DNA of 62,511 nucleotides, filler included, from Jimgerdemannia flammicorona (taxonomy: Eukaryota): NCBI GenBank assembly GCA_003990765.1. It is 2 parts of 2 records of this genome, joined end to end, with 100 filler letters (N's around TTAATTAATTAA, not from the genome) between each part and the next. Parts side by side here need not be neighbours in the genome. Positions count along the whole stretch, not along the records: positions 1 to 31,215 come from RBNJ01000408.1; positions 31,316 to 62,511 come from RBNJ01000409.1. One strand, 5' to 3'. This document shows, one piece after another, positions 1,578 through 52,235 of the stretch. Within the stretch, counting starts at the first letter, position 1; every line of letters starts with the position of its first letter. A program made the position numbers and the translations under genes. The notes beneath the pieces were generated by a model that worked only from the letters and a program-made list of their open reading frames with translations, was not told where the DNA came from and did not search any database.

Positions 1578-3610
1578 TGTAAGCGCACAACCTCCAAACC
1601 ACTGAAATTACATGTCACCCTCTGAACAAATCTGGAAATCACCTGCTTGATCATGAAGCTGAGTCAAACTGAAGTCACAGCACACAAAGCTGAGTCAATA
1701 CGAAGTCACAGAATATAAGATTTATACAAATGGAATCTTACCAATCAGAACCAAATGTATATATACCTAGCACTGAGATACACCGAAACAGAGAACCAAA
1801 ACAAATAACAACCACAAACTTCCAAATACATAAACATGACCACTGAGATCTATATCTGTATCTATGCTGACATTTGGAATGCCATTGTCAACCGAGCCAT
1901 ACTCCCTCTGCCCCTCATGAATATCTATAGTCTGGCACTCCTCTACTTCATGGAAGCCTGATAGAATACTCTGAACATGCTTAGCAAGGCCCACCGGATC
2001 AGACAAATCTCAAGCTACTACCAGATCGCTGCCTTCTGGAAGATATAGTTGAACACCACCACGATACAGATATTACCCAGATGTCTCAACACCAGAAGCT
2101 CATCGCTCGCAAATATCGAGAACTCTTCTATGAGTACAGTACCATTATTCCTCACCTCTGAGTTACTACTAGTGAAATAGTTGCTACCCTGTCTTATGGC
2201 CAAATCGACGACATGATATAAGAACTCAACTACAAGTATCTTGAGTATGTCGAAACTACAGACAGAATCTTCCCACACCCCAATGATCATATCCTACAAA
2301 TGCCCCAAGTTGGATATGCCATAAAGAACATCTATGATATAATCCACTTCGATGAAGACAAAGTAGAAGACAATGATCTCTCTGATGCCAATATGACCTC
2401 TAGCCAAGGATCTCTGCCAACTCTGATCATATCATCAATCTTGCCAATGAACTTACAACAATTCATAACAGTATACGAGACTTATTGGAACAATGACCAC
2501 TGGTATAAATACTAACCCGCGTTCACCCCCAATTACTTCAACTATAATGAAGAGACCGGAGAATACAACCTGTATCTCCAGACAACTCTTGAGATCGAAT
2601 CAACCACTCCACCACCTGAGTACAAGCGATATAAACCACAGTCGCCAGCTTACTATAATCCTGCAACTCATAGTGCTGTAACCTATAGAAGGTATGCAGA
2701 CAGTGAATCCAATGAAAGTGAAGACAACATACCCATTCTTTATCCACTAACACCTTATCTAGTCTATGAGACAGATGATGCTATCTTGTGGGATGGAGAC
2801 GAAGTCCCAATGTATTACTACCTCAGCGAACAAGGAGAAGTAATCTGTAAACCACTCTTCCTAGATGACTACTTCATCAGAGATGATGCAATCGATGGTG
2901 ATATCATCGAGAACTACCCAGACAGTGCCTAAACCATAAATAGCCTAAGCAGTCATAGTATAGTTAGATTAGCTTTGTATGACGTGACTGTAAACTGACT
3001 CAGCAGTCAGACGATCTCTTGACATATCAGATCACACTTGTACTATGTGACTGCATTCCGACTCAGTAAGGTACTTAGTACTACATCCATATCTAGCATA
3101 GTCCAGATAGCCCCTCACTAGTATAAATACCCCCTCCCCCAGACCTCAGAATCTCAGACTCGAACACACAAGAACATTCCTGAATACTTTCCCACAATAT
3201 CCCTTCACACAACTACTCCTAGTATAGCAATATCATGAATAACGAATAAATCTATTCAAATAACCCACAAACTACCCTTAAGTAAATCCACTTCCTGTTA
3301 GGTCCTACTCCTAACTCCATCACGAAATTTCCTAATTGAGTATTGTCTGCAGCGATACGCCAATTCAACTAAGCTGGTCTTAGTTTCTTAAACTTTCTAA
3401 AATATAGAAAATCTTGAATATCTAGAACTAGTCCAAAAGAGGACTTAGGATTGAGATGTCAACCTAATCTTGAAATCAATAAGTGTAGAGGATGTACTCC
3501 ATACGAAATTGATCTTGACCATAAGAAAACAGTCTTCCAGAATATCCAGAACTTCCAGAAAACCCTTCCAGAACTATATAATGATTACCCTAAAAAGCAA
3601 CCCTCTTACA
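1578..3610 (+). repeat. Element A 5' LTR (2033 bp)
   Basis: Starts TGTAAGCGC and ends CCCTCTTACA. Colinear with 4823-6853 and 11953-13986. TATAAATA at ~3123 and AATAAA at ~3245. Confidence 0.95.
1836..2932 (+). pseudogene. LTR-encoded ORF of family A (copy 1; stops and a 1-nt deletion)
   Basis: ATGACCACT at 1836 to GATGCAATC...AGTGCCTAA at 2932. Homologous to the ORFs in the other two LTR copies. Confidence 0.75.
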
Positions 3611-3613
3611 ACT

Positions 3614-3628
3614 TGGTAGCAGTGGTTT
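3614..3628 (+). promoter_or_regulatory. Primer-binding site, tRNA-iMet-like
   Basis: TGGTAGCAG lies 3 nt after the LTR end and is complementary to the ...CUGCUACCA 3' end typical of eukaryotic initiator Met tRNA. Confidence 0.65.
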
Positions 3629-4822: not shown

Positions 4823-6853
4823 TATAAGCGCACAACCTCTAAGCCACCGAAATTATATGTAACCTCTGAACAAACCTGGAAATCACCTGCTTGATCACGA
4901 AGCTGAGTCAAACTAAAGTCACAGCGCACAAAGCTGAGTCAATATGAAGTCATAGAACACAAGAATTACACAAACAGAATCTTACCAATCAGGACTAAAT
5001 GCATATATACCGAGCACCAAGATGTGTCGAATCAGAGAACCAAAACAAATAACAACCACAACTTCCAAAACACACAAATATGACCACTGAGATCTACAAC
5101 CACATCTGTGCTGATATTTGGAATGCCATTGTCAACTGAGCCACACCCCCTCTGCCCCTCATGAATATCTATAGTCTGGCACCCCTCTACTTCATGGAAG
5201 CCCGATGGAACGCCCTGAACATACTTAGTGAGGCCCACCGAATCAGACAAATCTCAAGCTACTATCAGATTGGCTGCCTCCTGAAAGATATGATTGAACA
5301 CCACCATGATACAGACATTACCCAGATGTCTCAATATCAGAAGCTCATCACCCGCAAACATCGAGAACTTTTCTATGAGTACAGTACTATTATTCCCTGC
5401 CTCCGAGTTACTACCAGCAAAATGGTTGCTACCCTGTCCTATGGCCAAATTGATGACATGATACAAGAACTCAATCACAAGTACCTCAAGTATGTCAAAA
5501 CCACAGACAGAACCTTCCCACACCCCAATGATTAAATCCTGCAAATGCCCCAAGTTGGATATGCCATGAAGGACATCTACGATATAATCCACTTCGATGA
5601 AGATGAAGCAGAAGACAATGATCCCTCTGATGCCAACATGACCTCTAGCCAAGGATCTCTGCCAACCCTGATCACTCTGCCAACCTTGCCAATAAACTTA
5701 CAACAGTTCATAACAGCATACAAGACTTATTGGGACAATGACCACTAGTACGAATACTAATCCGCATTCACCCCCGACTACTTCAACTATAATGAAGAGA
5801 CCAGAGAACACAACCTGTACCTCCAGACAACCCTCGAGATTGAACCAACCACTCCACCACCTGAGTACGAGCGACATGAACCACAGCCACCAGCTTATTA
5901 CAATCCTGCAACTCATAGTGCTGTAACCTATAGAAGGTACACAGACAGTGAATCCAATAAAAGCAAAAACAATACACCCCTCCTTCGCCCACCAACACCT
6001 TATCCAGCATACGAGACAGACGATACTATCCTGTGGGATGGAGATGAAGTTCCAATGTATTATTACCTCAGCGAACAAGGAGAAGTAATCCGCAAACCAT
6101 TATTCCTAGATGACTACTTCATCAGAGATGATGCAATTGATGGTGATGTTATTGAAGACTACCCAGACAGTGCCTAAACCCATAAATAGCCTAGCAGTCA
6201 TAGTATAGTTAGATTAGCCTTGTACAACGTGACTGTGAACTGACTCAGCAGTCAGACGATCTCTTGATGTGTCAGATCACACTTATACTACGTAACTGCA
6301 TTCTGACTCAGCAAAGCACTTAGTACTACATCCATATCTAGCATAGTCCAGATAGCCCCTCACTAGTATAAATACCCCCTCCCCCAGACCTCAGAATCTC
6401 AGACTCGAACACACAAGAATATTCCTGAATACTTCCCCACAATACCCCTTTACACAAATACTCCTAGTATAGCAATATCATGAATAGCAAATAAACCTAT
6501 TCCATAACCCACAAACCACTTTTAAGTAAATCTGCTCTCTGTTAGGTCCTACTCCTAACCCTATCACAAAATTTCCTAATTGGGTATTGTCTGCAGCGAT
6601 ATGCCAATTCAACTAAGCTGGTCTTAGTTTCTTGAACTTCCTGAAATATGGAAAATCCTGAACATCCAGAACTAGTCTGGGAAAGGACTTTGGTTGAGAC
6701 ATTAGCCCAATCTTGAAATCAATAAGCATAGAAGACGTACTCCATATGAAAGTGATCTTGACCATAAGAAAACGGTCTTCCAGAACATCCAGAATATCCA
6801 GAAAACCTTTCCAGAACTACGTAATGGTCACTCTAAAAAGTAACCCTCTTACA
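4823..6853 (+). repeat. Solo LTR of family A inserted in element A gag
   Basis: Full LTR copy flanked by a perfect 5-bp TSD AACTC (4818-4822 and 6854-6858). Gag reads through once it is removed. Confidence 0.95.
5080..6177 (+). pseudogene. LTR-encoded ORF of family A (copy 2, in the solo LTR)
   Basis: 1098 nt from ATG to TAA. Track ORFs 5161-5535 and 5545-5748 are in-frame pieces of it. Confidence 0.75.
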
Positions 6854-7677
6854 AACTCTTTGCTACAACTACAGTCTATGTCCGCCGAGTTGTTATATTC
6901 TTCCAAGGACCTGCTGAAGAATGGTGGTGAACCCTTCCTGAAAAATCCCTCATATGAGATACCTGATCTGCAGTAGTTGCTCAGAATGCAGCAAACAATG
7001 CCCCAGGATATGGAGCCCATCCTGCAGCCCCTGGACTCAAACAACTCATGATTGCTCAATACTGTAGTGAAATGATGATTACTGAATCTTGAGTAAAACT
7101 CTGCAACCTCAAATTTGATGTACATGGCAAAGAAGAATTTGAAACCTTCTGTATAAAACTCGAGTCACTTCTGAACACTGTTGGCCTAGGATATATCACC
7201 AATGATGAAGCACAAAATAGTACAAGAGCAGACCATTTATTTGATGCCCTGCCTGAATGGCTTACTAGAAAAATCCGAGAACAAGGCTGCCCAGTTGGTT
7301 ATGATCACCAACAATGGTGCCTGGAAAGAATCAAGACTATGGTCAAGTGAATCCTAATAGCTGGATCAATTCTGCCCCGAAGACAATTCAATAACAAGGA
7401 AAAGACTTGGACCAAGAAAGAAGAACCCAAGCATGAAGCATCCTGAGCTCCCTTCACATCCACCTCTTGGACACCTAGAAATCATGAACCCACCCAACCA
7501 AGTATCTTTAAGAAACTTACTGAAGGCGAAAGGAATGAACTTCAAAGAAGTGGAGCATGCTTCTATTGCTGAAAGACAGATCATATGGCCAGTGCCTGCT
7601 CTAACCGAAAACCCCGAACAGCAATAAGAGCAACTGTTACCACTCTACACCACCTCAACAACCTGACCACCAGAACA

Positions 7678-8085
7678 CTAGACTTTGTCAAGTTAAGACA
7701 AACTGCTAAGGCCCCAACCAAAGGAAGTCAGAAAGCAGCTGGATATGACCTATATGCAGCTGAAGAAGTTACAGTTTCCAACCGAGAAGTCAAACAAGTC
7801 TACACAGGAATCAGCATCCAAATCCTTGAAGGACATATTGGAAGAATATGCTGTTACAGCAGCCTAGCATTGAAAGAACTCTCAGTAGAAGGAGGAGTCA
7901 TTGACGAGGATTACATAGGTGAAATTATTGTCCTCATCTGAAACCATAGTTGGACACTCTTCAAGATCTCTATTGGGTTCTGCATCACCCAGATCCTATT
8001 CAAAAAAGTCGAGTCAACTCTGACAGTCAAGGAAGTCCCTGAACTATTGCCTACCATCAGAGGATCCAAAGGATTTGGCTCATCA
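7678..8085 (+). pseudogene. dut: Element A dUTPase domain (between the nucleocapsid and the protease)
   Basis: Motifs AAGYDL, (R)SSLA, GGVIDEDYIGEI, ITQI and RGSKGFGSS, in the gag-pol frame. Confidence 0.9.
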
Positions 8086-8319
8086 AACAAGGCTCCAGCC
8101 CAACCTACCATGAACAAAGAAGAATAATTCTACAAGAAAATCAAAGATGGATATGTACCAAGTGGCTGATGTCCCCATGGCATTGGAATGTACTCTTCCT
8201 GAATAATTGATGATTGCTTCTCTTATATCAATGAACTGGCTTAAAGAAGAACCAACAGAAGGAAGGCTCCTACAACTGAAATCACCACCATTGGATCAGA
8301 CAAACTGCTCACCCTTAAG

Positions 8320-11300
8320 GCTTTTGTCAATGGAGCACCTATCAAGATTATGATAGACAGTAGTGCTTCAGGCAACTTCATCAATGAAGAAACAGCCAAC
8401 AGACTCAAGGTTTTCACCTCCCCAGTACAGCAAACTTAAGCAGTTGCTACAGCTGATGGAACCTCACATGTTATTAGCAAGGAAGTCCACAATCTACCTT
8501 TCCGAATTGGTGACTACTGAGTACATGTTATCCTCCAGATCGTACCACTCTCTGACAACGAAATCATCCTTGGAACTCCATGGTTAAAACAAGAGAACCC
8601 CATGATCAATTGGGTAAACCATTCTCTGACCATCAAGAAAGGACACCACAACTTCAAACTGCAAGGCAAAAAGGACCCACTCAACTCTAGTGACTCTGAA
8701 CCAAAGATCACCCACATCAATAAGTTATAACTCAAGAAATTGACCAAGAAATGCCCTCTCTTCACCATCTCCATCTGTCCATCCAAAGGAGAACCTGAGA
8801 ACTCTGAAGAAGATTTTTCCAAAGTTGACAGCCATGTCAGACCACTACTCCAGAAATTTCGAGACATATTCCCAAAGAAACTCCCGAAAGGCCTACCTCC
8901 TAAATAAGTAGTAGACCATGCTATCAAGACTATCCCAGATGCCAAACCAGCCTTTAAGTCAATCTACCACATGTCTCCGAGAGAAATTGATATACTCAAG
9001 AAAGAAATTGATGAACTCCTAGAGTAAGAATTCATCAGACCCAGTGTATCACCCTATGGTGCACCAGTCCTCTTTGTTGTTAAAAAAGAAGGAGACCTGC
9101 AAATGTGCATTGACTATTGCGATCTTAATGAACAGACCATCAAGAACTATTGCCCACTACCAAGGATCGATGAAATATTCGATAGACTTACCAACCTGCA
9201 ATTCATGAGCTCCTTTGATCTGTAAAATGGTTACTGGCAAATTGCTATGAAAGAAGAAGACATCTATAAGACAGCTTTCCGAACTTGCTATAGACACTTT
9301 AAGTTCCTGGTTATGTCCTTTGGCTTAACTAATGCTCCAGCAACCTTCTAGATACTGATGAATACCATTTTGCATCCATACCTAGACAAATTCATTGTTG
9401 TCTACATTGATGATATCCTAGTCTTCAGCAAAACCCTAGAAGAACATCTTGAACACCTTGAACTAGTCCTACTGAAACTCTAAGAAAACCAACTCTTTGC
9501 AAAACTCAGCAAGTGTGAATTTCTCCTGAAAGAAATTCAATTCCTTAGACACATTGTCTTTCCAAATAGAATCAAAGTAGACCCCAGCAAAATCTCTGCA
9601 ATCAAAGATTGGCCCAGACCCAAGAAGCTGAAAGACCTCCAGTTATTCCTGGAATTAGCAAACTATTATAGGCGATTTGTTGCCAACTTTGCTAAAATCA
9701 CTACCACTCTCACCCAAATGACCAAGCACAGCAAGAAACAAGAACAACCCTGGACCATGAAATAAGAGAAAGACTTCAACAATCTTGTAACTTGGGGGCC
9801 CAAGCAAGATACTGCCTTTCAAGTACTGAAAGATACCCTGATAACCACTCCAGTACTTCAAGCGATAAATCCTGCCTTACTATATGAAGTCACTATTGAT
9901 ACCTCTGATCTAGCCCTTGGAGCAGTACTCATGCAAGAAGGACACCCTGTGGCCTATCACTCCCGCAAGTTCAATGATGTCGAAATCAACTACGCAACTC
10001 ATGAGAAGGAGATGCTAGCCATCATGGACACTCTGATCAAATGGTGACCTTATCTAGAAAGAGCACACTTCACTATATTAACTGACCACAAGTCATTGGT
10101 CAACATCAAGACACAGGCTACCCTTTCTCGAAAGCAAGCCAGATAGATGAAAGTCCTCACCAACTTTGACTACAAAATCCAGTACCGTCCTGGTAAGGAA
10201 AGTATTATTGCTGATACAATCTCCAGACCACCAATCGAAGAGGTTATCCAAACTCTCACCTTGGTTACAAACTCCATCATGGAACAAATTATCACAACAT
10301 GTGCCGATGATAAGGAAGCTTAAGCACTGTGAGAAATCCTGAATAGTGACGATATAGACAAGTATATATAGTATCATCAATACCAACTGAAGGACAATGC
10401 TATCTACTACAAGGATAGACTATATGTCCCAAACAACCGAGACCTCCAAAGGACTATCCTATTCGAATATCATGATGCCCCTATAGCTGGACATTTAGGA
10501 TTTGATAAATGTTATAAAGTTATCTCCCAAAACTTCTATTGGCTCTGCATGGCAGATCAGCTCAAAACCTACATCACTTTCTGTGATGTCTACCAATGAA
10601 ATAAGTCCTCAATACTAGCAAAACCTAGCTTACTTCACCCTATCCCAGTACCATCTGCTAATTGGGAACAAATCTCTATAGACTTCATTATACAACTACC
10701 CTGAACCAAGAATGGAAAAGATGCAATTGTTGTCTTTATGGACTATCTCAGCAAACAAGCTTACTTCATACCTACTATTACTACTGCAATAGCACCAGAC
10801 ATAGCCACACTCTTGTTTAATAACATCTTCCACTATCATGGTCTTCCCAAGATCATTGTTAGTGACTGAGACCCAAAATTCATCAGCCATTTTTGGAAAG
10901 CCCTCCATACACACCTTGGAACAAAACTTGCACTATCCACAGCCTTCCACCCTGAAACTGATGGCCAAACCAAAAGAATGAACCAAACTCTGGAACAAAT
11001 GCTAAGGAACTATATTTCCTATAGATAAGATGACTGGCATGAACACCTCACTGCAGTTGAGTTTGCCTATAACAATAGCAAGCAAGCCTCTCTCGGAATG
11101 ACTCCATTCTTCGCCAATACTGGACAAAATCTAAACACCCCTTTGACACTTATTCAAACCACTGAAGAACCCTCTACAGTCGAAGCTGTTGAAGAATTCT
11201 TACTCTGAATATACAACCTAAGCCAGATTGCTATTGAGAATTTATCATGAGCTCAAGAATAACAGTCACAGTATGTTAACCAACACTGCTGAGAAGAAAC

Positions 11301-11743
11301 TTTTGATATTGGAGAAAAAGTTCTACTGGACATCAGAGAATACCAAGTTGACAACCTCAAGTACAGACCATCTATAAAGCTGAATAGTAAGTTCATTGGA
11401 CCATTTGAAATCATCGCACAAGTCTCTCCAACCTCCTACAAATTGGTGCTACCAGACACCATTAAGATTCACCCAGTCTTTAATGTTCAATATCTCAAGC
11501 GATACAATGAGAATAATGACGAGCTATTTCCAAACCAAACCACCAAACCACCTGCACCTGTCATTATTAATGACCAAGAAGAGTACAAAGTTGAACAAAT
11601 TCTCAACAAACATGGCAACAAGAACTACCCTGAGTACCTTGTCAAATGGAAAGGTTACCCAATCCATGATGCAACCTAGGAACCCAAGACCAATCTCCAG
11701 AATGCTACCAATCTAGTTCAGGAATATGATTCCTTGAATAACT
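8320..11743 (+). pseudogene. pol: Element A pol: protease, RT, RNase H, integrase, chromodomain
   Basis: IDSSASGNFI (degenerate DSG) at ~8353; PLPRIDE; YIDD at 9403; RNase H (KEMLAI, TDHKSL); integrase HHCC and GQT(E)R; GPF at 11398; chromodomain EYKVEQIL...YLVKWKGYP at ~11580-11730. Confidence 0.93.
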
Positions 11744-11938
11744 AGAACTAAATACTCTACACCTATCAGTACACACTATATATTATCCTCCCGAACATTA
11801 TAATTATTGCAAACCAAAAACTCAGCAAAACAAGACAAGAATACTGATCCTCTGGAGAAATGGCAAAACCGAAAGCAAGCCTATTCTCCCTGTACCACTG
11901 AACAAAATTAGAAGGCCCCGACGAGGACGTCAAAAGCT

Positions 11939-11951
11939 AAGAAGGGGAGAG
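11939..11951 (+). promoter_or_regulatory. Polypurine tract of element A
   Basis: AAGAAGGGGAGAG immediately upstream of the 3' LTR TGT. Confidence 0.85.
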
Positions 11952-11952
11952 T

Positions 11953-13986
11953 TGTAAGTGCACAACCTCCAAACCACTGAAATTACATGTCACCCTCTGA
12001 ACAAATCTGGAAATCACCTGCTTGATCATGAAGCTAAGTCAAACCGAAGTTACAGCGCACAAAGCTGAGTCAATACGAAGTCACAGAACACAAGATTTAC
12101 ATAAATGGAATCTTACCAATCAGAACTAAATGCATATATACCTAGCACTGAGATGTGCCAAAACAGAGAACCAAAACAAACAATAACTACAAACTTCCAA
12201 ACATACAAACATGACCACCAAGATCTATATCTGTATCTGCGCTGACATTTGGAATGCCATTGTCAATCAAGCCACACCCCCTCTGCCCCTCATAAATATC
12301 CATAGCCTGGCACCCCTCTACTTCATGGAAGCCCGATAGAATACTCTGAACATGCTTAGTGAGGCCCACTGGATCAGACAAATCTCAAGCTACTACCAGA
12401 TCGGCTGTCTCCTGGAAGACATGGTTGAATACCACCACGATACAGACATTACCCAGATGTCTCAACACCAGAAGCTCATCACCTGCAAACATTGAGAACT
12501 CTTCTATGAGTACAGTACCATTATTCCTCATCTCCAAGTTACTACCAGCGAAATGGTTGCTACCCTGTCCTATGGCCAAATCGACAACATGATACAAGAA
12601 CTCAATCACAAGTACCTCGAGTACATCAAAACCACAGACAGAATCTTCCCACACCCCAATGATCATATCCTGCAAATGCCCCAAGTTAGATATGCCATGA
12701 AGGACATCTACGATATAATCCACTTCAATGAAGACGAAGCAGAAGACAATGATCCCTCTGATGCCGATATGACCTCTAGCCAAGAATCTCTGCCAACCCT
12801 GATCATACCGCCAACCTTGCCAATGAACTTATAACAATTTATAACAGCATACAAGACTTATTAGGACAATGACCACTGGTATGAATATCAACCCATGTTC
12901 ACTCCCAATTACTTCAACTATAATGAAGAGACTGGAGAACACAACCTATACCTCCAGATAACCCTCGAGATTGAACCAACCACTCCACCACCTGAGTATG
13001 AGCAACTTGAACCACAGCTGCCAGCTTACTACAATTCTGCAACTCATAGTGCTGTAACCTATAGAAGGTACACAGACAGTGAATCTAATGAAAGTAAAGA
13101 CAACACACCCATCCTTCATCCACCAACACCTTATCTAGCCTATGAGACAGACAATGCTATCCTGTGGAATAGAGACAAAGTCTCAATGTATTACTACCTC
13201 AGCAAACAAGGAGAAGTAATCTGTGAACCACTCTTCCTAGATGACTACTTCATCAGAGATGATGCAATCGATGGTGATGTCATCGAGGACTACCCAGACA
13301 GTGCCTAAACCATAAATAGCCTAAGCAGTCATAGTATAGTTAGATTAGCTTTGTACGACATGACTGTGAACTGACTCAGCAGTCAGATGATCTCTTGACA
13401 TGTCAGATCACACTTATACTATGTGACTGTATTCCGACTCAGCAAGGTACTTAGTGCTACATCCATATCTAGCATAGTTCAGATAGCCCCTCACTAGTAT
13501 AAATACCCCCTCCCCCAGACCTCAGAATCTCAGACTCAAATACACAAGAACATTCCTGAATACTTTCCTACAATATCTCTTTACACAATTACTCCTAGTA
13601 TAGCAATATCATGAATAGCGAATAAATCTATTCAAATAACCCACAAACCACCCTTAAGTAAATCCACTTCCTGTTAGGTCCTACTCTTAACTCTATCACG
13701 AAATTTCCTAATTGGGTATTGTCTGCAGCAATACACCAATTCAACTAAGCTAGTCTTAGTTTCTCGAACTTCCTGAAATACAGAAAATCCTGAACATCTA
13801 GAACTAGTCCAAAAGAGGACTTAGGATTGAGACATTAACCTGATCTTGAAATCAATAAGCGTAGAGAATGTACTCTATATGAAATTGATCTTGACTATAA
13901 GAAAACAGTCTTCCAGAATATCCAGAACTTCCAGAAAACCCTTCCAGAACTATGTAACGGTTACCCTAAAAAGCAACCCTCTTACA
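11953..13986 (+). repeat. Element A 3' LTR (2034 bp)
   Basis: TGTAAG...CTTACA, colinear with the 5' LTR. Confidence 0.95.
12211..13308 (+). pseudogene. LTR-encoded ORF of family A (copy 3; 365 codons)
   Basis: ATGACCACC at 12211. Track ORFs 12553-12834 and 12895-13308 are in the same frame, and the stops read as sense codons in sister copies. Confidence 0.78.
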
Positions 13987-33177: not shown

Positions 33178-33191
33178 ATATAGTTATCATA

Positions 33192-37558: not shown

Positions 37559-37578
37559 GATATAGTTATCATATATAT

Positions 37579-40449: not shown

Positions 40450-40494
40450 AAGCACCACCTGTCAGTCATGAGAATTGTGCAGCCTTCATGTCAG

Positions 40495-40716: not shown

Positions 40717-41811
40717 CCCCTATAACTCAATCCATAGTAAACAATGGCCTGTACCTCACATCGTGCAAGCCAATAGCATAGCAAATGTTCGCCACAATGT
40801 AGTATACCTTAGCTGCATCCATAGCTAGCAAACTTGTATAAATAACCCATATTCTTAGAGTGAATAAACCTCAGTCAGTTTGTGTTTAAAAGTAAAAAGG
40901 ATTATAAAGAAACCACTGCCTCCAAGAGACCGGAAAATTCTGAGAACAAGATAACAATCTAGAGCAACGGATCGCTTGGAAGTTTGAGTTAAGGAATTTC
41001 TCTTACCGCCTGAATTTCAAGTTTTGCCACCACAAAAAGGATTCAAGACCACGAACTGCCCACAAGTCAGTCAGTTTATATTTAAAAGTAAAAAGGATTA
41101 TAAAGAAACCACTGCCTCCAAGAGACCAGATAAATTCTGAGAACAAGATAACTAGAGCAACAATTGCTTGAGGTTTGAGTTAAAGAATTTTCTCTTGCCA
41201 TGGAAAGAAAACATTACCCGACCGCCACCATTTGGACCATGCATTCGACCACCATTCGAGACCTGAGACCCAGCCAAGGATTCAAGACACAACTGCCATG
41301 CATTCAGACTGCCATTCGGACTGCGCATTCGACTGCCATTCAAGATTCAAGACCCAGAAACCCAAGGATACCCAGCCAAAGGATACTAGACTGCCAAAGA
41401 CCGACCCGCTGCCAAAGACTTGAACAACTGCCAGGAACCTTTCAAGTTAACAAGTCAAGATGGACGAGTGAGCTGTCAACCTCTGTTTTCTCAACCTACT
41501 GTGCCACGAACTGCTTAAAGCCAAGCCCGTCATCGCTGCATAAATTCAAGTTCGCTGCCAAGTTATTCGCCGCCCTTTTCCACTAAAGAATTGAGCCATT
41601 GATGTCCTGAGCCAACGAACAATTGAATGACCTCCCCATCGAACAAATCGAAGTTCTGCTATTATCAAATATTGCATGTTTCGAATGACCTGATCACGTG
41701 ACTATCGACCCGTAACCATCGCGAATGCACTCACATCTATCGCGTGCTTCACCAAGTGGCACATTGAGCCATGACAGAAGCAACTAGGGATATAAACCCA
41801 ATGCCACATTT

Positions 41812-41828
41812 TGGAGGCTCAACTGGGA
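41812..41828 (+). promoter_or_regulatory. Primer-binding site (possibly tRNA-Gln)
   Basis: TGGAGGCTCAACTGGGA lies 3 nt after the LTR end. It resembles the TGGAGGTTCCACCGAGA-type complement of tRNA-Gln. Confidence 0.55.
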
Positions 41829-41877
41829 AAGTTTTCAAAAGACTTGACCATTTGGCTCAAGAACCCAGCTATCTACA

Positions 41878-44100
41878 GTGGAGAACTTAGCAGGACCAAG
41901 TCAGCAACCAAACCAGGGGCAGCAACAGCCCTCCTCAGCAGAAAAGAAAGCCCACACCCTTGTCAGAACAGTAGCCAGGACCCTACTCAACACCAGTAGC
42001 CAGAAAACTGAATCAGAAGAAAGAAGTGACCCAGATTACAGTTTGACTTCAAGAGAAAGGAGACAACTCAGAGGGCAATCAGAACCCCCCCTTCAGATCC
42101 AAGACTTAGGCCAAGAAGAAGAAGAGGATATCCCCAAGGAGTATCAGACCCTTATCCATAGGAAGAACTCAGACAGAAGTGACTACATAACTACTGTTGT
42201 TACTCGAGTCACTCCACTAGACTAGGTAAACTTTGAAACATCAGAAGGAGAAGAGGACTACCATCCATATCAACCAGAGCAAGATGATGATTGGGGATCA
42301 GACCATCAAAGGGATGAATTCAACCTATACTATTATCCAGACAGCAACACTGACCCACAACAGGGTGAACAAGACTTCACTACTTCACAACAGTAAGGGG
42401 CAGATGAACTCACTATCAGTTATATCAGTCCACTCCCACCATCAGTTGCTCGAACTTCAGTACCCTGGTCACTCACACCTCGCCACTATCACCAGTTTAT
42501 TAGAAGATCTCCACCACTACCCAGGACTTCAACTCCAGCATTAATTAGAAGAGCCAGATTACCCTCACCCTCACCAAGACACCACCCTCTGCCAGCACTA
42601 CTAGATCATCAAGTACTAGCACCACCACCTTCTCCATCACCCCAAGGATCTGCCAGATCCCCCACCCCTGAACAATACTCAGATAGTGAAGACAAGCCAG
42701 ACATGAGCTACCTTCAGAAGTTCCATGGTGCAGACAATGAAGATATTGAGGAATTCTTTGGAGAAATTGAAGTTCAAGCAGCTGCCAAACAATGGGATGC
42801 TGCAAGAAAACTCAGAATTGTGGAGTCACTCCTGAGAGGACCAGCCCTACAGAGATATAATCAAGCCAAGCAAGCTGGAGGAGGAATCCATATAGAGGAA
42901 CTGAATGATGGCCTTCAACCTGATAGAAACCATGTAGCAAGGTACATAATTCACAAGGCCTGGCTCTGTGCCCAGTTCAATGGATTCGAGCACCAACAAG
43001 AAGTACAGGAGGCTTTAACCTATATGAGCCAAGCTGCCAATGAAACCCCCAAGAGTTTCTACCATCGGATTCAAGCTCAGATGATCAAGGCAAACCTTCA
43101 ACCAGCAGTCCAACTGGCCCTAGCCTCAACTACCTTCCTCAATGGCTTATACCCAGAACTCCAAAGGCAAGTTATCAGGATGGGATATCGAAACATTGAA
43201 CAGCAAGTTGCTGGAGCACAAGGATGTTGGGAAGCAGATTATAGATCAGTACAATAAGTACAAGGCTATTCTGAGCCAATCCGAGCTGAAACCCCAAGGA
43301 CCTGAGGAACAACCATGGAGCAAGAGAATGCCTTCCTCAGAGCCCAGATAGCCAACTATGAGGACAGACCAGCACCTACAAATCTGACTCCATTCAGGCA
43401 ACCACAGCAGCAGCCACCATCAAGAGTTCAAGAAGACCCCATGACAACACTCACCAAGCAAATAAAGGACCTGGCCATCGCGGTTGCCCAGCTGAAGAAC
43501 CAAGGTAGAAGACAATAGGACTACCATCATGATAACAGACCAGACTACTGGCAACAAGACAACAGAGGTCCTGCCCCCGCACTACCAGCTACAACTACAG
43601 CCTCATCATCAACTGGTTCCTATGGTCCCACCTGCTTTACCTGTGGAAATCAAGGCCATATCCAGAGGAATTGTCCAAGGAACCAATCCACCCAGTCCAA
43701 TGACAGAAATGTCAACCTCTTTCAGGTAGATGAAGAGACTCAGGAAATGGAAGAAGAAGCAGCCTGGCTCCATGGTCAAGAAGATGACATCTACCCATAC
43801 TTCAAGGCTTTTCCATCCAAGGTGATATGGGAAGCTACCCCCACAGAGACTAGAGGATGAGGAAGACCATGAAGGAACCCCCCACCTCAACTACCAGTAA
43901 CAGTATCCACCAGTAAGTATCCATGACATGGCCATTCTTCTTCAGATACTCCACAAGAACAGAAGAAGCGAGTTAGAAGAGATACTCCTGAACCAGAAGC
44001 CAGACCATCTAGGACAACCCCCAGCTCTACCCTGCCAGACCTTGAAGAAGATGAGCATATGAGCATAGAATCTTTAGCTGATGAAATGCCCATCAGGAAT
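41878..44100 (+). pseudogene. gag: Element B gag
   Basis: LQKFHGADNEDIEEFF...LLRGPALQRY; QAANETPKSFYHRI; FLNGL; CCHC CFTCGNQGHIQRNC at 43633-43674. Ends are approximate. Confidence 0.85.
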
Positions 44101-44149
44101 GAGAGACTAAACCCCAAGGGACCAAGACACCGAAGAAGCAGCAAGCCCC

Positions 44150-47100
44150 ATGCAGCAGCCTCACTTTGGGAACATATCCGCCTACAATGCTGGTCTTATA
44201 GTTGAGCAAGTCCTCAAGAATATACCAGAGGTCAGGCGAAAATTCCTGAAAGAAGCCAAGAAAGATACCAAGAGACTTCCAGTCCAAGGACCACACACTC
44301 AAGAACCTAGTACTATCCACACAGTCCATGAGAGCCAGCGACATGAACATCAATCTACAAGACTCGCCAATGAAAAAGTGCATGGTGAAAATGCCAGAAT
44401 TCTCGTCAATACTAGAGCAGCAGTATGCATTATCACCCAAAGGATGTTAGAGCAAATTGGATGAGAAATAGATGAAGGAACCAAAGCAAGAGTTATCATG
44501 GCCGACGGATCAGCTTCCACACCCCTTGGACTTGTCAGAGACATCTCCATTCAAGTTGGAAAGGCCTGCCTCAATGTACCCAAAGCTGTCATGACCCCTG
44601 CAATCTCCTATGATCTGATCCTGGAAACTGACTGGTTAAGCCGAGTTGGAGCCAATGTAGATATCAAGAAACAACTCCTGGTCTTCTCCATTCATGGACA
44701 GAAGCACAAGATGCCCATTGACTTGAAAGGATTATCCAAAAAGACGAACCAAGCCTCAGAAACAGAATGGCAAGGATATGGCAACACCCCCACTACTACC
44801 AAGGATGAAAGCGAGGCCAATTTCCTACAAGAACTAGGAAGTGATTTTGATGCCCCAAGGGACCAAGAAAGTGAACAAGAAGACTCTTTCATTGGAGTTA
44901 TTAGTGTTGAAGGCCTGGAAGAAAGCATTGATAGAGCCATTAATGTAAGGGTAGCACTTGAGTTTGCAGGACCTTCTGCTCAACCACCACCACCACTGGT
45001 AGAAAATCGGATCATGCAAGCCTTTTGTCGAGGCATATGTGAACACTTTATCAGCTTCCACTCACCAAGAGATGATTGCAGCAATTGCCGAATCCTGAAT
45101 CTCAAGAAGGTTCCAATGCCAGAAATTGATGACAAGGATGAATTGAAGCAAGCACCATCCCACAGCCGAATACAACCTCCAACCCCAAAGACCTTCAAGA
45201 AGACCTATAAGGAAGGACAGAAGATCCTTGCCTGCCAAACATTCGAGTCCCTTACCATCGAAGGAGAAAGCAACAGCTCCTACACTATCACCCGGGCCCT
45301 CCAGATCACACAGCCCACCTATGACAAGTATCAGAAGAGATTCCCTACCAGTAGGGAGGTCAAACAGCAAAATGAAGACTTTGTCAAGAAGGGACATTGT
45401 GATTGTGGAAAAACCTTTACCTGTTACTGGTGTGAACATCAAGATGTTCACCTCAGTGAAGATGTCTACAAGAGCCGAGTCAAAAGAAAGGATCCCACCA
45501 TGCAAGAACCTCGAATTCGCTGGGCCTGTCGGAAGTGCAAAGAAATCAACCATGAAGGAGATTGCAAGTTCAAGAGCAAGACCTCTATCTGGGACCTACC
45601 ATTGGAAGTTCTTGCCATCATTTGCTGGTACTGCCACTCTCATCAAGGAAAAGAAGGTATCAATCTTACCTTCATCCTTATGGAAGCTCTGGACCCTCTA
45701 GGAAAGACTGGATTCAATTACACAAGAAACTCAAAGACAGGAGCTCATTGGCCTTTCTTCAAACTGGAGCACATAGACTTCTTACCTATAATGACAACAG
45801 CTGAAGCACTATTTCTCAAAGCTCAACCAATTATCCAGGTCAAGCTGCTTTCACCCTGGGCACAGCCACCTCTTGCACAAACAGAAGGATCAGTTGGTTA
45901 TGACCTCTGCCTCCCCTACCAAGCAAGAATCTGACCCAGAAGTACCAGGACTTTTGACCTACAGATCGCACTCACTATACCACCTGGGTATTATGGACAA
46001 TTGGCTTCAAGATCCTCATTGGCAACCAAAGGAGTCACAGTAGAAGGAGGAGTCATCGATCAGGACTACCGAGGTCTCTTGAAGGTCATTATCTGCAATT
46101 CTAGTAGAACCAGCTAATTCTTTAGTCCTATGGAAGTCATCTGCCAAATCCTGTTTATCAAGACATCACAGCTGACCATCCAAGAGGTAGACCAACTAGA
46201 AGATACCAACAGAGGATAAGGAGGCTTTGGAAGCACCAATAGAAATCTATGGACACTACCTATCGAGGTTCATCTAGCAACAGTTGCTCAATTCCGACAA
46301 ATGAGACCTTACATCTGCCATCTAATCCAAGCAAGAGAAGACATCCTCCTGCAGCCCTACCAGCAAAAAGGCCTAGATGTGCACCTACCAGTAGAAGCAA
46401 ACAACTTGATATTTGCACCATTACTGGAGCTTCAAAAGGAATACCACATCCTCCTGGCTAAAGAACGAATTCATGACCAGATGTCACTGATCCACATCCC
46501 TATCAGAAACTTGGGCTTCAAAGTAATAACTATCCCCAAGGGAACAACAATGGGATATTTCGAACCACTGATAGATACCTATAAGGAAGAAGTCTTCGAA
46601 TTCTTGGGAAATGGCAAACCCTCTCCAGTGAGACTGACAGTACCAGGGAGGAAGACTCAGCAAATTCAGCAATCAAAGCCATCGATATCGAGACAACTCT
46701 AACCAAGGACCAGCAACAACAGATACAGGAGTTGATAGAGGAGTATAAAGATATATTTACCACCACATATAATAACTTCCCACCATATCAATACAGAGAA
46801 CACCCTATACATACTGGAGATGCAAGACCAATCCGACAATGACCCTACCGAACACCACATCATCTGATTGAATTTGAACAACAACACATAGATGAAATGC
46901 TATGAAATGGAGTCATCAGACCATCATCAAGCCCCTGGGCTTCACCAGCAATCATAGTACCAAAGAAAGGAGGATGGAGATTAGTTGTGGATTTCAGAAA
47001 ACTCAACAAAGTCACCACAGAAGACACCTACCCACTGCCAAGAATTGATGACCTCATTAATGCCCTCGGAAAAGCCAAGTACATGACCACTACTAACCAG

Positions 47101-49357
47101 TTCCAAGGATTCCAAGTAATACCCATTGCCAAAGAAGATATCTGCAAGACGGCCTTCATCACCAGATGAGGACAGTACAAATATCTATAAATGCTCTTTG
47201 GACTCTGCAATACACTTGCCTCATTCCAATGAATGATGAACTATGTCTACTGGGACCTCATTGGAAGAAATGTACTAGTGTACATAGATGATATAATCAT
47301 CTACTCTGAGACATTCAAGCAGCATTTGCAAGACCTCTGCGAAATATTCAATACCATTCGAAATTCAGGACTCAGACTCAATGCCAAGAAGTGCTTCTTT
47401 GGAAAACATCAAGTTGAATATCTGGGATATGTTGTCTCAGCTCAAGGAATACATGCTGACCCCTGCAAGGTGGAGAAAGTCAAGAACTACCCAATCCTGA
47501 CCTCAGCAAAGGAGACCCTATCTTTCCTTATGCTGGCATCCTACTATCGATGATTCATCCCAAGGTTTTCAGATAAGGCAGCACCTCTCCGAGATATCTC
47601 CAAGAAGGACCAACCATTCTACTGGAAAGAAGAACAACAAAAGTCATTCGACCTACTCAAGAAGGCCCTTACTGAAGCCCCTGTCCTGGTGCGACCAGAT
47701 TTTAGCAAACCATTCATCCTGACAACTGATGCCTCAGCCTTAGGACTTGGATCAATTCTGTCTCAGCAACATGACCAGAAGAGGGAGCATGTTATCGAAT
47801 ATACTAGCAAGGCCACAAACGAAATACAAGTGAACTATGGAGCCACTAAGTTGGAATGCCTAGCAGTAGTTTGGGCTGTGGACCACTTCTGACACTATCT
47901 CTTGAGAAAGAGATTCACCCTCATCACTGACTATCAAGCTCTACAATAGTTGTTCAACAAGCCAGAGCCCTCAGGAATCTTCGCTAGATGGATCATGTCT
48001 CTGCAAGAATATCAGTTCACTATTGTCTACAAGAAAGGTGCTAAGAATTCCAATATCGATACCCTGTCACGAATCCTGCGAAACCAACAAGAAGAGAAGG
48101 AGCCCCCACAAGAGAAGGCTGCTTCCCGCTCACCCAAATGAACCAAGAATTGTGCCTCGCCCTCACCTGGAGTCTGTACCATAGAAGCTTCAAGAAAGGA
48201 ATCCAACCAGCCCACAAGTTGTTTATCCAAAGGAATTTCAAGAAATTCCAAGAAGGCGATGGTGAACTTTGGAGAGTAGAAGGAGAGCAGTACACCTGAG
48301 TTCCAAAGAAGAAGAAATATTGAAGATCCTGATAACAAATCATGACCAAAATACACACCGAGGAATTGGTGCTACAATCACAAGAATCAAGAAGTGATAC
48401 TGGTAGCCCAAGATGAGAAAACAAATTTCAACACACATTCAACAATATGATACCTGCCAAAGATACCGATAAAAGCCTACCAACAGAGCACCATTAATAC
48501 TGATCACAGCACCAGCTAGAGCCTTTCAAAGACTAGGAATAGACATTATTGGACCCCTACCAGTAACCAGCCGAGGAAGATGCTACATCCTCACTATCGA
48601 AGACCACCTGACAAAATGGCCTGAAGCCTTTGCCATTGAGATGGCCGATGCTCAGACAATTATTAGGATCCTGTATGATGAAGTTTTCAGCCGCCATAGT
48701 GTGCCTAAGGAAATCATTACAGACCAAGGCCAAGAATTCATCAACCAAGCCATGAAGACCTTTGTGAGCAACTTCAAGATCAAGCTATGACCAACAACAG
48801 CCTACTACCCTCAGGCAAATGGACTCACTGAACGAATGAACCAGACCATCAAGTGAGGTCTTAGTAGAACTGGAGATCAACTAAACTGGGATATCTATCT
48901 ACCAGCAATTCTGTTCAGCATCCGTACCTCTAAGGCAACCACTACCCAACAGACCTCCTTCTATTTGGTGTATGGCCAGGAAGCACAAGATCCTACTGAA
49001 CCAGTCCAGCTAGATCTGTCAAAACAAGTTACAGAAGAGATCACCCGGTTACACAACATATGCCAGCAAGCACAAGGATTTATCGCCAAGGCATAAGAAC
49101 GACAAAAGAGGTACTATGACCACAAAGCCAACCTTGAACCCCTGCTCATTAGACAAAAGGTTCTGGTGTACCATACCATCATAGAAGAAAATTGGAGTAC
49201 CAAGCTTGAACCAAAATGGGAAGGCCTCTATCTCATACACCAAGTATTCTCGAACCACACTTATCAACTCAAGACCTTGGATGGAGTTATACTCAAGACC
49301 AAGATACATCGCAACCACATAAGACTCTACTACTCAAGAGAAGCAAAACACATTTGA
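44150..49357 (+). pseudogene. pol: Element B pol: PR, Cys-rich/F-box-like insert, dUTPase, dUTPase-like, RT, RNase H, integrase
   Basis: ILVNTRA (DTGA after G->A) at ~44400; PLPRIDD; YIDD at 47281; TTDAS; KLECLAVVW; GIDIIGPLP, TDQGQEF, GLTER; KLEPKWEGLY. Confidence 0.92.
45827..46238 (+). pseudogene. dut: Element B dUTPase domain
   Basis: SVGYDL, LASRSSLA, GGVIDQDYRG, ICQI and RG*GGFGST (all five trimeric dUTPase motifs). Confidence 0.92.
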
Positions 49358-49672
49358 ACAATCCTATTCACTCTGTCTGTGTCATCTCTGCTGGAGATAT
49401 GACAGACGTTTCACTCAGAACTCAAGAAAGCCAACAACATTGGAACCAGACTCAAGCCCATCCACGTGACAGACATTGTTACTAAGAAATTGCCTCAGAT
49501 TACAAGAAATACTATTTCTGATCTGTTCGAATCCCCAGCCGTGACTATGGGAGCCCTCACCCTAGACAAGGATGGCCAGTCCTCACAAATGCACCAGCAT
49601 TCTGCTCATCCCTGGAGTTAAGACCACCCAACTCTGTGTAATCCTCACTGCCAAGGATGGCTCTAATTTTGC

Positions 49673-49682
49673 AAGGGGCAGA
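49673..49682 (+). promoter_or_regulatory. Polypurine tract of element B
   Basis: AAGGGGCAGA directly before the 3' LTR TGTG. Confidence 0.7.
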
Positions 49683-52235
49683 TGTGATGTACACAATTAA
49701 CAATGGAGTACTGGTGACTGCTAAGATCAGATGACATAATGGCGTAACAATCAAATAGACAGCCTGACCCATTAGGTGATCATTCCAAAAGAAGACAAGA
49801 TGATCTGAGCCAAAATGAAGACCATGTTATTTAAGGACCCATACTCCACCTCAGGGATCGGCACCAAAGAACTAAGTACCCACTATACAATGTCTCCCAT
49901 TTGCCGATCCAACCAGACCTCCCACTGCTCTACCCCTTTGCCTGGCCCAAAGACCCTGATCTTTGAAGCTATCAAGAAGGCCATCTGGTGCCCAGATACT
50001 TCCGAACACTTGAACTTCTACACTGAGGACCTTGGACACTTCATCAACTACTGGTATATAATGACCCAACAGCTCAAAGACACTACCGAACAAATGACCC
50101 TCTGGCATGACTACGAAATTGGACACTGCCTTTGCAATGAGACTCAAGAAGATGACCAGGAAGGCCTCATTACTGAATTGATAACCACTAGCCGGCTAAT
50201 CAAGAGAGCCCTCCATGTCCACCAAATCTTCTGCCATATTCCCTGGGCCATAGCACACTTGCAAGAAGTAATGACTGGCAGCCTCTCCCGCCTTTCAACT
50301 GAAGATGCTGACTGGATAGAATCTGAAGTAGCCAACTCTATTGGCAGCAACTGCGTCACCATAGGAAGCCAACAAACTGAACCTACTCAGCCAGGTTTCC
50401 ATACCACCCCACTCCGAGACAACCATCAAGGTCACCTAATGAGTCTTATGGAGATATTTGAAGGACCACCCATTACTATAGAAGCACTTGTTGGAGCTAC
50501 CCCAACCACCCACCACCCTGCCAGCCACAATTCACATCTCATCATTTGGGAACTGAATCAAGAAGAAGCCCAAGAGGTCCCTGTCTTTGAAGAGGAAGCC
50601 CAAGAACTCCAAGACCCTGCTCCTGAAGAAACCCCCTCTGACACTGAAACTGACGAGTTTTCAGAAGAAGAAGAGGAGCAACAGAGAGTCTACCAGTCCT
50701 CTGTCTGCATTCAAGCTGTTCAAGAGTTAGAGAATGTTGTTGAAGATGACTGGCCACTTTTCTACTCCCTCACCTCTTGGCCGGCACTTCCCCCTTTTGA
50801 GGAGAGGTATGATGAAGAAGAAATCTTAACCCAGCAAGATTTGCCTGCTGCGGACAAAGGGTACTATTTCCTCTAGAAGCACCACCCGTCAGCCATGAGA
50901 ATTGTGTAGCCTTCATGTCAGCAAGTCAGCAAGTCCGAATCCAGCATTGCTACCCAGCACAACCGTTTTCAGCATTTTGTCAGCAAGTTCGAATCCAGCA
51001 TTGCTACCCAGCACAACTGTTTTCAGTATTTTGTCAGTAAGTCCAAATTCAGCATTGCTACCCAGCACAACCATTTCCAGCATTGCTACCCAGTGCCACC
51101 ATTTTCAGCATTTTGTCAGCAAGTCCGAATCCAGCATTGCTATCCCCTACAACCCAATCCATAGTAAACAATGGCCTGCACCTCGCATCGTGCAAGCCAA
51201 TAGCATAGTGAATGTTTGCCACAACATAGTATACCTTAGCCACGTCTATAGCTAGCAAACTTATATAAATAACCCATATTCTTAGAGTGAATAAACCTCA
51301 GTCAGTTTGTGTTTAAAAGTAAAAAGGATTATAAAGAAACCACTGCCTCCAAGAGACCAGAAAATTCTGAGAACAAGATAACAACCTAGAGCAATGGATC
51401 GCTTGGAAGTTTGAGTTAAGGAATTTCTCTTGCTACCTGAATTTCAAGTTTTGCTGCTATGAAAAGGATTCAAGACCATGGACTGCCCGCAAGTCAGTCA
51501 GTTTGTGTTTAAAAGTAAAAAGGATTACAAAGAAACCACTGCCTCCAAGAGACCGGATAAATTCTGAGAACAAGATAACTAGAGCAACGATCGCTCGAGG
51601 TTTGAGTTAAAGAATTTTCTCTTACCACAGAAAGAAAATGTTACCCGACTACCACCATTCAGACCGTGCATTTGACCACCATTTGAGACCTGAGATCCAG
51701 CCAAGGATTAAAGACATGACCACCACGCATTCAGACTGCCATTCGGACTGCGCATTCGACCGCCATTCAAGATTCAAGACCCAGAAACACAAGGATACCC
51801 AGCCAAAGGATACTAGACCACCAAAGACTGACCCGCTATCAAAGACTCGAATGACTGCCAGGAACCTTTCAAGTTAACAAGTCAAGACAGACGAGCAAGC
51901 TGTCAACCTCCGTTTTCCCAACCTACTGCGCCACGAACTGCTTAAAGCCAAGCCCATCATCACCGCATAAATTCAAGTTCGCCGCCAAGTTATTCGCTGC
52001 CCTTTTCCACTAAACAATTGAGCCATCGACATCCTGAGCCAATGAACAATTAAACGACCTCCCCATCGAACAAATCGAAGTCCTGCTATTATCAAATATC
52101 ACATGTTTCGAATGACCTGATCACATGACTATTGACTTGTAACCATCGTGAATGCACTCACATCCATTATGCGCTTCACCAAGTAGCACATTGAGCCATG
52201 ACAGAAGCAACTAGGGATACAAACCCAATGCCACA
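49683..52235 (+). repeat. Element B 3' LTR (2553 bp)
   Basis: TGTGAT...GCCACA, colinear with the 5' LTR. Confidence 0.95.
49815..50876 (+). CDS. Intact LTR-encoded ORF of family B (353 aa, unknown function)
   Basis: Uninterrupted frame in the U3 of the 3' LTR. Helical-looking N-half and acidic, aromatic-rich C-tail. An alternative start is the ATG at 49890. Confidence 0.7.
   Translation: MKTMLFKDPYSTSGIGTKELSTHYTMSPICRSNQTSHCSTPLPGPKTLIFEAIKKAIWCPDTSEHLNFYTEDLGHFINYWYIMTQQLKDTTEQMTLWHDYEIGHCLCNETQEDDQEGLITELITTSRLIKRALHVHQIFCHIPWAIAHLQEVMTGSLSRLSTEDADWIESEVANSIGSNCVTIGSQQTEPTQPGFHTTPLRDNHQGHLMSLMEIFEGPPITIEALVGATPTTHHPASHNSHLIIWELNQEEAQEVPVFEEEAQELQDPAPEETPSDTETDEFSEEEEEQQRVYQSSVCIQAVQELENVVEDDWPLFYSLTSWPALPPFEERYDEEEILTQQDLPAADKGYYFL

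Follow-up and report, generated by a model that had tools for sequence, protein, structure and literature searches.

A family of putative accessory genes inside the long terminal repeats of two fungal Ty3/gypsy elements

Introduction

Long terminal repeats (LTRs) are usually taken to be non-coding promoter and terminator modules, and repeat masking conceals them from gene finders. A few vertebrate retroviruses place accessory genes within the unique 3′ (U3) part of the LTR. The sag gene of mouse mammary tumor virus (MMTV), of ~320 codons, lies wholly in U3, is present at both ends of the provirus and is expressed apart from gag-pol; its product is a membrane glycoprotein superantigen of this vertebrate retrovirus. 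Foamy-virus Tas, a transactivator that binds DNA and has an acidic activation domain at its C-terminus, acts on its own LTR and is expressed from an internal promoter of its own. Here we describe two Ty3/gypsy elements, A and B, whose LTRs each hold a long open reading frame (ORF) where U3 would lie. Both lie in a 62,511-nucleotide (nt) stretch of the Jimgerdemannia flammicorona assembly GCA_003990765.1, made up of parts of records RBNJ01000408.1 and RBNJ01000409.1 and referred to below as the window.

The closest described layout is that of the MMTV 3′ LTR open reading frame, which PMC2118998 mentions. Like sag, the fungal ORFs lie wholly inside the LTR, in what would be its U3 part. Unlike Sag, their proteins look soluble, helical and acidic, and no sequence or fold relation to it was found. 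Foamy-virus tas/bet and human immunodeficiency virus (HIV) nef share with the fungal ORFs a 3′-end position overlapping U3, and the two-part layout of Tas, a folded domain with an acidic tail, is matched by the fungal proteins as they are known here from sequence and model. Unlike those viruses, the fungal elements are intracellular retrotransposons without env, and no homology to the viral genes has been shown. A second point of comparison is the ORF3 of the bdelloid elements Vesta, Juno and TelKA and of Athila-type plant elements, which the part of PMC5408684 at hand describes as family-specific, positioned 3′ of pol, common to unrelated lineages and usually expressed from spliced messages. 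Those ORFs sit between pol and the 3′ LTR, whereas the fungal ORF follows the polypurine tract, lies inside the LTR and is duplicated with it. Among fungal elements, Tmt1 (Tuber), PosPlaTy3 (Postia) and Phanerochaete elements resemble A and B in carrying a dUTPase at a variable position in pol; the portions of PMC2864245 and PMC6431247 available do not report protein-coding LTRs. A literature search, which mostly did not extend to subscription journals, likewise found no published protein-coding LTRs in fungal elements, and returned only MMTV and unrelated uses of the phrase.

Long open reading frames in the LTRs of A and B

The window contains five LTR copies from two families, each with an ORF in the sense orientation:

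1577-3611, plus strand: A-family LTR copy L1 (self-BLAST, 91.4% identical to L3 and 88.1% to L2); the interior that follows it is not A gag-pol
4825-6855, plus strand: A-family LTR copy L2, the 5′ LTR of the full element A (self-BLAST, ends)
11952-13988, plus strand: A-family LTR copy L3, the 3′ LTR of element A, with TATAAATA at 13498-13505 and AATAAA at 13621-13626
39256-41808, plus strand: 5′ LTR of element B (self-BLAST, ends)
49683-52235, plus strand: 3′ LTR of element B, with a TATTTAA-like site at 49828-49834, a 54-bp repeat in three copies at 50925-51084, TATATAAATAA at 51262-51272 and AATAAA at 51290-51295
1745-2932, plus strand: A LTR ORF in L1, with several stops and out of register for the first ~95 codons (translation, alignment)
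4999-6177, plus strand: A LTR ORF in L2, 392 codons from ATG to TAA, with five internal stops after the ATG (tblastn with P0006, 62%, E 2e-101)
12130-13308, plus strand: A LTR ORF in L3, 392 codons, with five internal stops after the ATG
39463-40449, plus strand: B LTR ORF in the 5′ LTR, in the same frame as the 3′ copy, from which its openness differs solely by two CAA>TAA stops
49890-50876, plus strand: B LTR ORF in the 3′ LTR, intact, 328 codons from the ATG shared with its homologs

The three A copies (2031-2037 bp) are 88.1-91.4% identical, and the two B copies (2553 bp each) are 92.2% identical with no indels. The A repeats begin and end TGTAAG...CTTACA and the B repeats TGTGA...CCACA, and purine-rich tracts lie 5′ of the 3′ LTRs of both elements; these repeats are LTRs. 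No target-site duplications were recognizable. Differences between copies are nearly all transitions (195 of 199 differences in B; 301 of 332 variable columns in A), and they lie in CpG and CpA contexts. The A and B LTRs have no self-BLAST match to each other at E≤1e-20, and the encoded proteins are only distantly alike (reverse transcriptase (RT) 33%, RNase H 33%, integrase (IN) 28%, dUTPase 40% identity). A preliminary description of this window had claimed very long LTRs, dissimilarity of the two elements in both LTRs and gag-pol, and C-to-T damage, all of which these comparisons confirm.

The B frame is preserved in a present-day copy. In the 3′ LTR it lies inside a stop-free run of 355 codons (49809-50876), compared with a longest run of 218 and a mean of 102 codons in 1000 dinucleotide shuffles. 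The A frame carries 5-7 internal stops in each of its three copies, most of them one C>T or G>A step from CAA, CGA or TGG. The colinear pair L2 and L3 has no internal stop in common between codons 4 and 395, and the sole stop common to L1 and L2 (codon 257) reads CAA in L3. When transitions were reverted in consensus sequences built from the window copies, 435 codons of A (three copies) and 366 codons of B (two copies) were free of stops, and the other five frames did not exceed 147 and 130 codons, respectively. All five LTR copies descend from ancestors in which the ORF was open; that of A is open as an inferred ancestor only, and in no present copy. The earlier claim of a sense ORF of ~350-365 codons upstream of the TATA box in both LTRs is confirmed, for B with its 355 codons and, with a correction, for A, where the frame (~392 codons) is broken in every copy; its proposed check by consensus, restricted here to copies in the window, leaves both ORFs open as the sole long frame of six.

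Within the LTR, the ORF spans positions ~179-1357 in A and 208-1194 in B, starting 178 and 207 nt inside the repeat, and the TATA box follows at ~1547 and ~1580. In both elements, therefore, the ORF is inside the LTR and upstream of the TATA box, as expected of a gene embedded in U3, and the likeness to complex retroviruses that had been drawn for this layout holds, with a coding ORF in the U3 place of both LTRs. Judged by their sequences, both LTR ORFs are genuine protein-coding genes. They could instead be dead cargo, either chance frames or captured host-gene fragments with no function in the element. The breakage of every A copy counts in favor of that explanation. It sits poorly with a B open run far above the shuffles, with the sole long frame of six in both consensus LTRs, and with the occurrence of related copies in at least two LTR types within one window; the protein family described below bears on it further.

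Probable relationship between the A and B ORFs

The similarity between the two ORFs is visible to profile methods only; BLASTP of a B-ORF relative (P0004) against an A-ORF copy (P0001) detects no similarity (E 0.66). By hhalign, residues 22-149 of the B family align colinearly with residues 41-170 of A, at E 0.0058 with a shallow B profile and 0.001 with a deeper one. The score of 32.6 was reached by none of 200 column shuffles, a lenient null (mean 14.7, standard deviation 2.7, maximum 25.8), and the reversed alignment scored 12.0. A hidden Markov model (HMM) of the B family was also run against 502 window ORFs of at least 50 residues. Its top match outside the family was a piece of the A ORF (5140-5532, E 0.25), two further A-ORF pieces appear in the same list, and the read-through alignment is colinear. 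These profiles suggest that the A and B ORFs are probably homologous. The preliminary description had presented the two elements as unrelated families converging on one design. The colinear similarity between profiles makes independent invention less likely than the sharing or exchange of one gene, and the convergence reading is corrected accordingly: the gene seems to be shared between A and B.

Two further loci extend the B-type family, one from a metagenome and one within the window:

49553-49599, plus strand: conserved block in the spacer between pol and the 3′ LTR of B (blastn, 81% over 48 nt to positions 10-57 of L001, E 1e-5)
~52626-53375, plus strand: third B-type ORF family member, heavily mutated (GC content 26%), just 3′ of the B 3′ LTR; its start is extrapolated and the matched part is 52998-53375

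L001 is a metagenome locus of 1535 nt with an ORF at 376-1251 that is ~30% identical to the B ORF. It was the one confirmed case among 23 pattern matches in the metagenome scan with A5; the scan with A1 confirmed none of 589, and scans of viral contigs confirmed none of 41 and none of 54. Compared with the window, blastn detects the 48-nt block alone, while tblastx and tblastn detect the ORF. In both B and L001 the block lies ~330-350 nt 5′ of the ORF ATG, and in B it falls after the pol stop at 49357 and before the 3′ LTR at 49683. L001 therefore shares with B a block from the end of the interior, which supports a conserved place for the ORF in a B-like element. The block is a candidate for an internal promoter element or a splice acceptor region. 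The third member matches P0015 (tblastn, 54% over 126 residues, E 1.7e-32) and the B-family HMM (52809-53093 and 53148-53375). It sits in another LTR-like stretch, followed by tandem repeats of ~350 bp.

A protein family with a predicted helical domain

A word-based search recovered close relatives of the B ORF as a cluster of six proteins from JGI and ENA contigs, including P0004 at 76% identity. A HMMER profile search with the B alignment over 1.84 billion representatives returned nine proteins at E≤0.001. Five distant members (P0013, P0014, P0015, P0018 and P0019), at ~30% identity, share an MPPxR start and the motifs DLGHF, W.EYEIGH.L, AKKIHQIFRH.P, DNPDQ.LQ and FEGPPI, after which comes an acidic tail of variable length. 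Every family match derives from an environmental contig in JGI or ENA, with no match in NCBI or UniRef, a distribution that would fit a repeat-borne gene masked in genome annotation. That the open frame, the start and the fold persist in relatives only ~30% identical speaks for selection on the B ORF as a protein.

Known families gave no counterpart. Pfam had no real match in any LTR ORF or in the nine B-family members (best E 0.044 and 0.046), a PDB sequence search with both profiles gave no match at E≤10, and the ESM Atlas returned no usable match for P0013 or P0006. AlphaFold2, run on 10 diverse sequences, gave a mean predicted local distance difference test (pLDDT) score of 74 and a predicted template modeling score of 0.66, with residues 20-165 at ~90 and all helical; an earlier run on near-identical sequences only had given a pLDDT of 36. 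The B ORF protein is thus modeled as an all-helical domain of ~150 residues with an acidic, hydrophobic, proline-rich tail. Foldseek found nothing at E≤0.001 in PDB or BFVD. The best structural neighbor of residues 72-157 is 3w2a_A, below the tool's noise level (Z 4.9, root-mean-square deviation 3.9 Å over 77 aligned residues; next row 3.7), as are further rows of ParB/VirB/SopB/KorB-type DNA-binding proteins (Z 3.3-4.2).

The tails have an isoelectric point (pI) of ~4.05-4.4 and contain 19-35% Asp plus Glu; bulky hydrophobic residues make up 26-34% of each tail except that of P0023. Among their motifs are DLISFSDDDDE, EDLIIFEDL and LFLDDYFIRDDAIDGD. This composition is the make-up typical of acidic activation domains. 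By eye, the N-termini of the A and B ORFs show no hydrophobic, signal-like stretch. The extreme C-terminus of the B ORF seems weakly constrained: between P0004, P0007 and P0008 on the one hand and P0011, P0009 and the window (50800-50876) on the other, the last ~12-20 residues differ in the manner of a one-base frameshift.

Frameshift-variable C-termini among close relatives, together with the lack of a match to known families and the first structure prediction at pLDDT 36, would suit ORFs that serve no function in the element. Against this, homologs at ~30% identity retain start, length and motifs, and prediction of the helical domain becomes confident when the input sequences are diverse. 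We consider dead cargo very unlikely, and a real, selected family of LTR-borne genes highly probable. It would be a new protein family without known relatives and with a confidently predicted helical domain, and its function may be to control how the element is expressed in a fungus associated with roots. In five metatranscriptome runs from roots, 5-9% of the host-gene words are present.

Candidate promoters, transcripts and a putative regulatory role

Both LTRs carry candidate promoter and poly(A) signals 3′ of the ORF. In A, TATAAATA lies 190 nt 3′ of the ORF stop and is followed by AATAAA at 13621; in B, TATATAAATAA lies 386 nt 3′ of the ORF stop and is followed by AATAAA at 51290. Three 54-bp repeats (50925-51084) separate the ORF from the TATA box in the 3′ LTR of B. 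In A, the stretch at 13370-13450, between the ORF stop and the TATA box, holds GACTCAGCA twice; one of them is TGACTCA, a candidate AP-1/Gcn4-type site.

We lean, with some confidence, towards an explanation in which a separate accessory gene is present in each A and B LTR, as an 'ORF3' whose position 3′ of the polypurine tract puts it inside the repeat. Under the classical reading of TATA box and AATAAA, this U3 gene would be the 3′-terminal cistron of the genomic RNA. It would need its own message, either spliced or started from TATA-like sites 24-75 nt 5′ of the ATGs. The A ORF would be a remote homolog of the B gene, and the product a non-secreted, trans-acting regulator of its own LTR. 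As a transactivator or adaptor, it would combine a helical, possibly helix-turn-helix, targeting domain with an acidic activation-type tail, much as in foamy-virus Tas. That the product is such a Tas-like transactivator of the element's own LTR is a tentative proposal by analogy, and on balance doubtful; adaptor roles may apply as well.

The same TATA-like sites allow a different layout, in which transcription starts in the first ~200 nt of the LTR and the ORF lies in the repeat (R) and unique 5′ (U5) regions rather than in U3. The ORF would then be the 5′-proximal cistron, either in the genomic RNA or in a short mRNA that comprises the LTR only and ends at AATAAA, and every LTR, solo LTRs included, would be a self-contained gene. 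Consistent with such a start, TATAAAAG lies ~75 nt 5′ of the ATG in L001, TATTTAA 56 nt in B and CATAAAT 24 nt in A, and the AATAAA 3′ of the ORF is 313 nt away in A and 414 nt away in B. Opposed to it, both families have a stronger TATA box 3′ of the ORF, followed by AATAAA within ~20-120 nt, which is the classical U3/R arrangement, and R would exceed 1.3 kb, an unusual length. We regard a start upstream of the ORF as unlikely, and retain placement of the gene in U3.

Transcript data were sought in RNA runs picked by host genes (16000-25999), four of which were compared, as assembled contigs, with 39000-52400 at 80% likeness. On the element B region, 25, 88, 4 and 3 pieces matched, covering 8, 16, 2 and 4 of 30 bins. 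The B ORF part is represented by low-depth pieces in runs X1 and X2, whose label 'RNA?' is a guess, and by none in two root metatranscriptomes. The joints within contigs fall between equivalent LTR positions or within LTR repeats.

Several observations weigh against a conserved, LTR-borne regulator. The A ORF has a single database relative (P0006, 62% identity). For the homology of A and B, hhalign itself gives a probability of only 21%, and column shuffles are a permissive control. L001 is too short to reach a repeat, and shows only a common upstream neighbor. No fold match rises above the noise level that the tool gives for helical proteins. At pI 5-7 the N-terminal domains are close to neutral, whereas many DNA-binding domains are basic. 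Finally, the short assembled contigs show no message or splice for the B ORF and are uninformative on its expression.

A broader proposal would class at least two deep lineages of fungal Ty3/gypsy elements as 'complex retrotransposons' that share an ancient LTR-embedded regulator, with a new all-helical fold and an acidic activation tail, that switches on its own LTR; every solo LTR would then be a working copy supplying the factor in trans to the whole family. We put this forward as a speculation that is rather improbable as a whole. For its part, a conserved protein family housed in fungal LTRs would mean that accessory genes embedded in U3, a layout of a few vertebrate retroviruses, also occur in fungal retrotransposons, and that solo LTRs, usually the most numerous remnants of an element family, could be coding genes.

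Architecture of elements A and B

Outside their LTRs, the two elements are organized as follows, with domain coordinates converted from Pfam residue ranges:

6856-11951, plus strand: interior of element A, a single gag-pol frame (Pfam)
Domains of the A interior, plus strand (Pfam): CCHC; dUTPase 7705-8085; protease (PR) 8296-8646; RT 9082-9546; RNase H 9793-10167; IN 10435-10953; SH3; Chromo 11584-11730
41809-49682, plus strand: interior of element B (Pfam and ORF list); the last pol frame ends at the stop at 49357
Domains of the B interior, plus strand (Pfam): gag CCHC 43630-43677; PR 44345-44689; Cys-rich insert 44690-45871; dUTPase 45869-46237; RT 46957-47433; RNase H 47623-48012; IN 48308-48811

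Both have a CCHC gag followed by PR-RT-RNase H-IN, direct LTRs with TG...CA ends and a polypurine tract before the 3′ LTR, as in Ty3/gypsy elements. The pol order in A is dUTPase (E 4.5e-28), PR, RT, RNase H, IN, SH3 and Chromo; element A is a chromovirus, because a Chromo domain (PF00385, E 5e-12) lies at the C-terminus of its integrase. In B, no chromodomain was matched by Pfam in the three sense frames at E≤0.01. The B interior contains a few frameshifts, and a Cys-rich insert of 394 residues separates PR from the dUTPase (E 5.1e-29).

The 1.2 kb between L1 and L2 (3612-4824) differs from the start of the A interior. It opens with a tRNA-type primer site (TGGTAGCAG...), which is visible after L1 only, and continues with gag-leader-like ORFs that have no Pfam match. 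No polypurine tract precedes L2 at its end. L1 is probably part of a second A-subfamily element, truncated by the full element A.

In X1 and X2, the organism's own runs, the part of the B LTR 3′ of the TATA box (40788-41234 and 51069-51962) is covered by many high-depth contigs. A little further upstream, near 40820-40831, several of these contigs diverge from the window. The pattern suggests other LTR subfamilies that have this post-TATA part in common but a different upstream half.

dUTPase and the Cys/His motif

Both dUTPases are full-length matches to PF00692 (98 bits in A and 101 bits in B, against a gathering score of 22), and presumably retain all five dUTPase motifs, with transition-type damage. 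The domain precedes PR in A and lies between PR and RT in B. A dUTPase in the pol of fungal gypsy elements is already known, at the pol N-terminus or between PR and RT, with independent acquisition proposed in the parts of PMC2864245 and PMC6431247 available. The dUTPases of A and B are ordinary pol additions of this kind, so that the domain reported in the preliminary description is present in both elements and is not new; the conserved LTR-borne protein family and its placement are the new part.

A short Cys/His motif of the form CxH...DDCxxC, reported in the same description for both elements, is found in both pols:

8170-8226, plus strand: CPH...DDCFSY motif in A, between dUTPase and PR, with an in-frame stop within it and Y, not C, as its last residue (regular expression)
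45038-45088, plus strand: CEH...DDCSNC motif in B, 117 residues after PR (regular expression)

The claim holds in full for B, and in A only with the final Tyr and the stop noted above. The pattern C.H.{6,12}DDC..[CY], defined after viewing the data, has exactly two matches in a six-frame translation of the window. Both are in pol, and none of 2000 residue shuffles contains it. The context differs, with the motif 5′ of PR in A and 3′ of PR in B. Around the motif BLASTP detects no extended similarity between A and B (E 0.17), Pfam finds nothing at E≤5 in the B 394-residue insert or the A motif region except Zn_ribbon_10 (E 0.98, B insert), and a PDB sequence search with the motif regions gave nothing meaningful.

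These motifs had been read as putative modules recruiting E3 ubiquitin ligases. Extended to the LTR ORFs, that reading would make ORF proteins and motif alike lentivirus-like adaptors in a counter-defence against silencing. Short linear motifs abound in the tails, as they do in viral adaptor proteins, and the Cys/His motif is in frame in both pols and absent from the shuffles. PPxY is a motif bound by NEDD4/Rsp5-type ligases; PPEY occurs in all three A copies of the ORF, and PPAY in one of the three (LPAY in one more) and in P0013. By sequence, PPxY in the A ORF and P0013 is the only ligase-type signal and is not conserved: P0006 lacks it, and so do 11 of 12 scanned B-family sequences. Neither in the ORFs nor in the inserts was an E3-related or other Pfam domain found, the motif pattern was set post hoc, and nothing ties the motif regions to ubiquitin ligases. 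The window's own copies are heavily C>T/G>A mutated, so that no protection is visible. We judge this adaptor explanation improbable, and as an account of the motifs the E3-recruiting claim was not upheld.

Other features of the window

The minus strand of 31000-39255 and 52236-62511 gave no Pfam match, and the genes of both stretches are on the plus strand. A LINE-type non-LTR retrotransposon is present there in two diverged, colinear copies (33826-37032 and 56373-59582, plus strand), with RVT_1 in both (E 1.1e-27 in the first and 1.6e-13 in the second) and Exo_endo_phos in the first (E 2.5e-4). The strong positive GC skew of these two intervals is due to the LINE-type copies. The window also contains a block of host genes (~15.4-31 kb, GC content 52%) surrounded by fungal-type repeats, two runs of N (31216-31259 and 31272-31315), and an inverted repeat pair, 2-344 and 37203-37536, which is 82% identical over 344 nt and part of neither A nor B.

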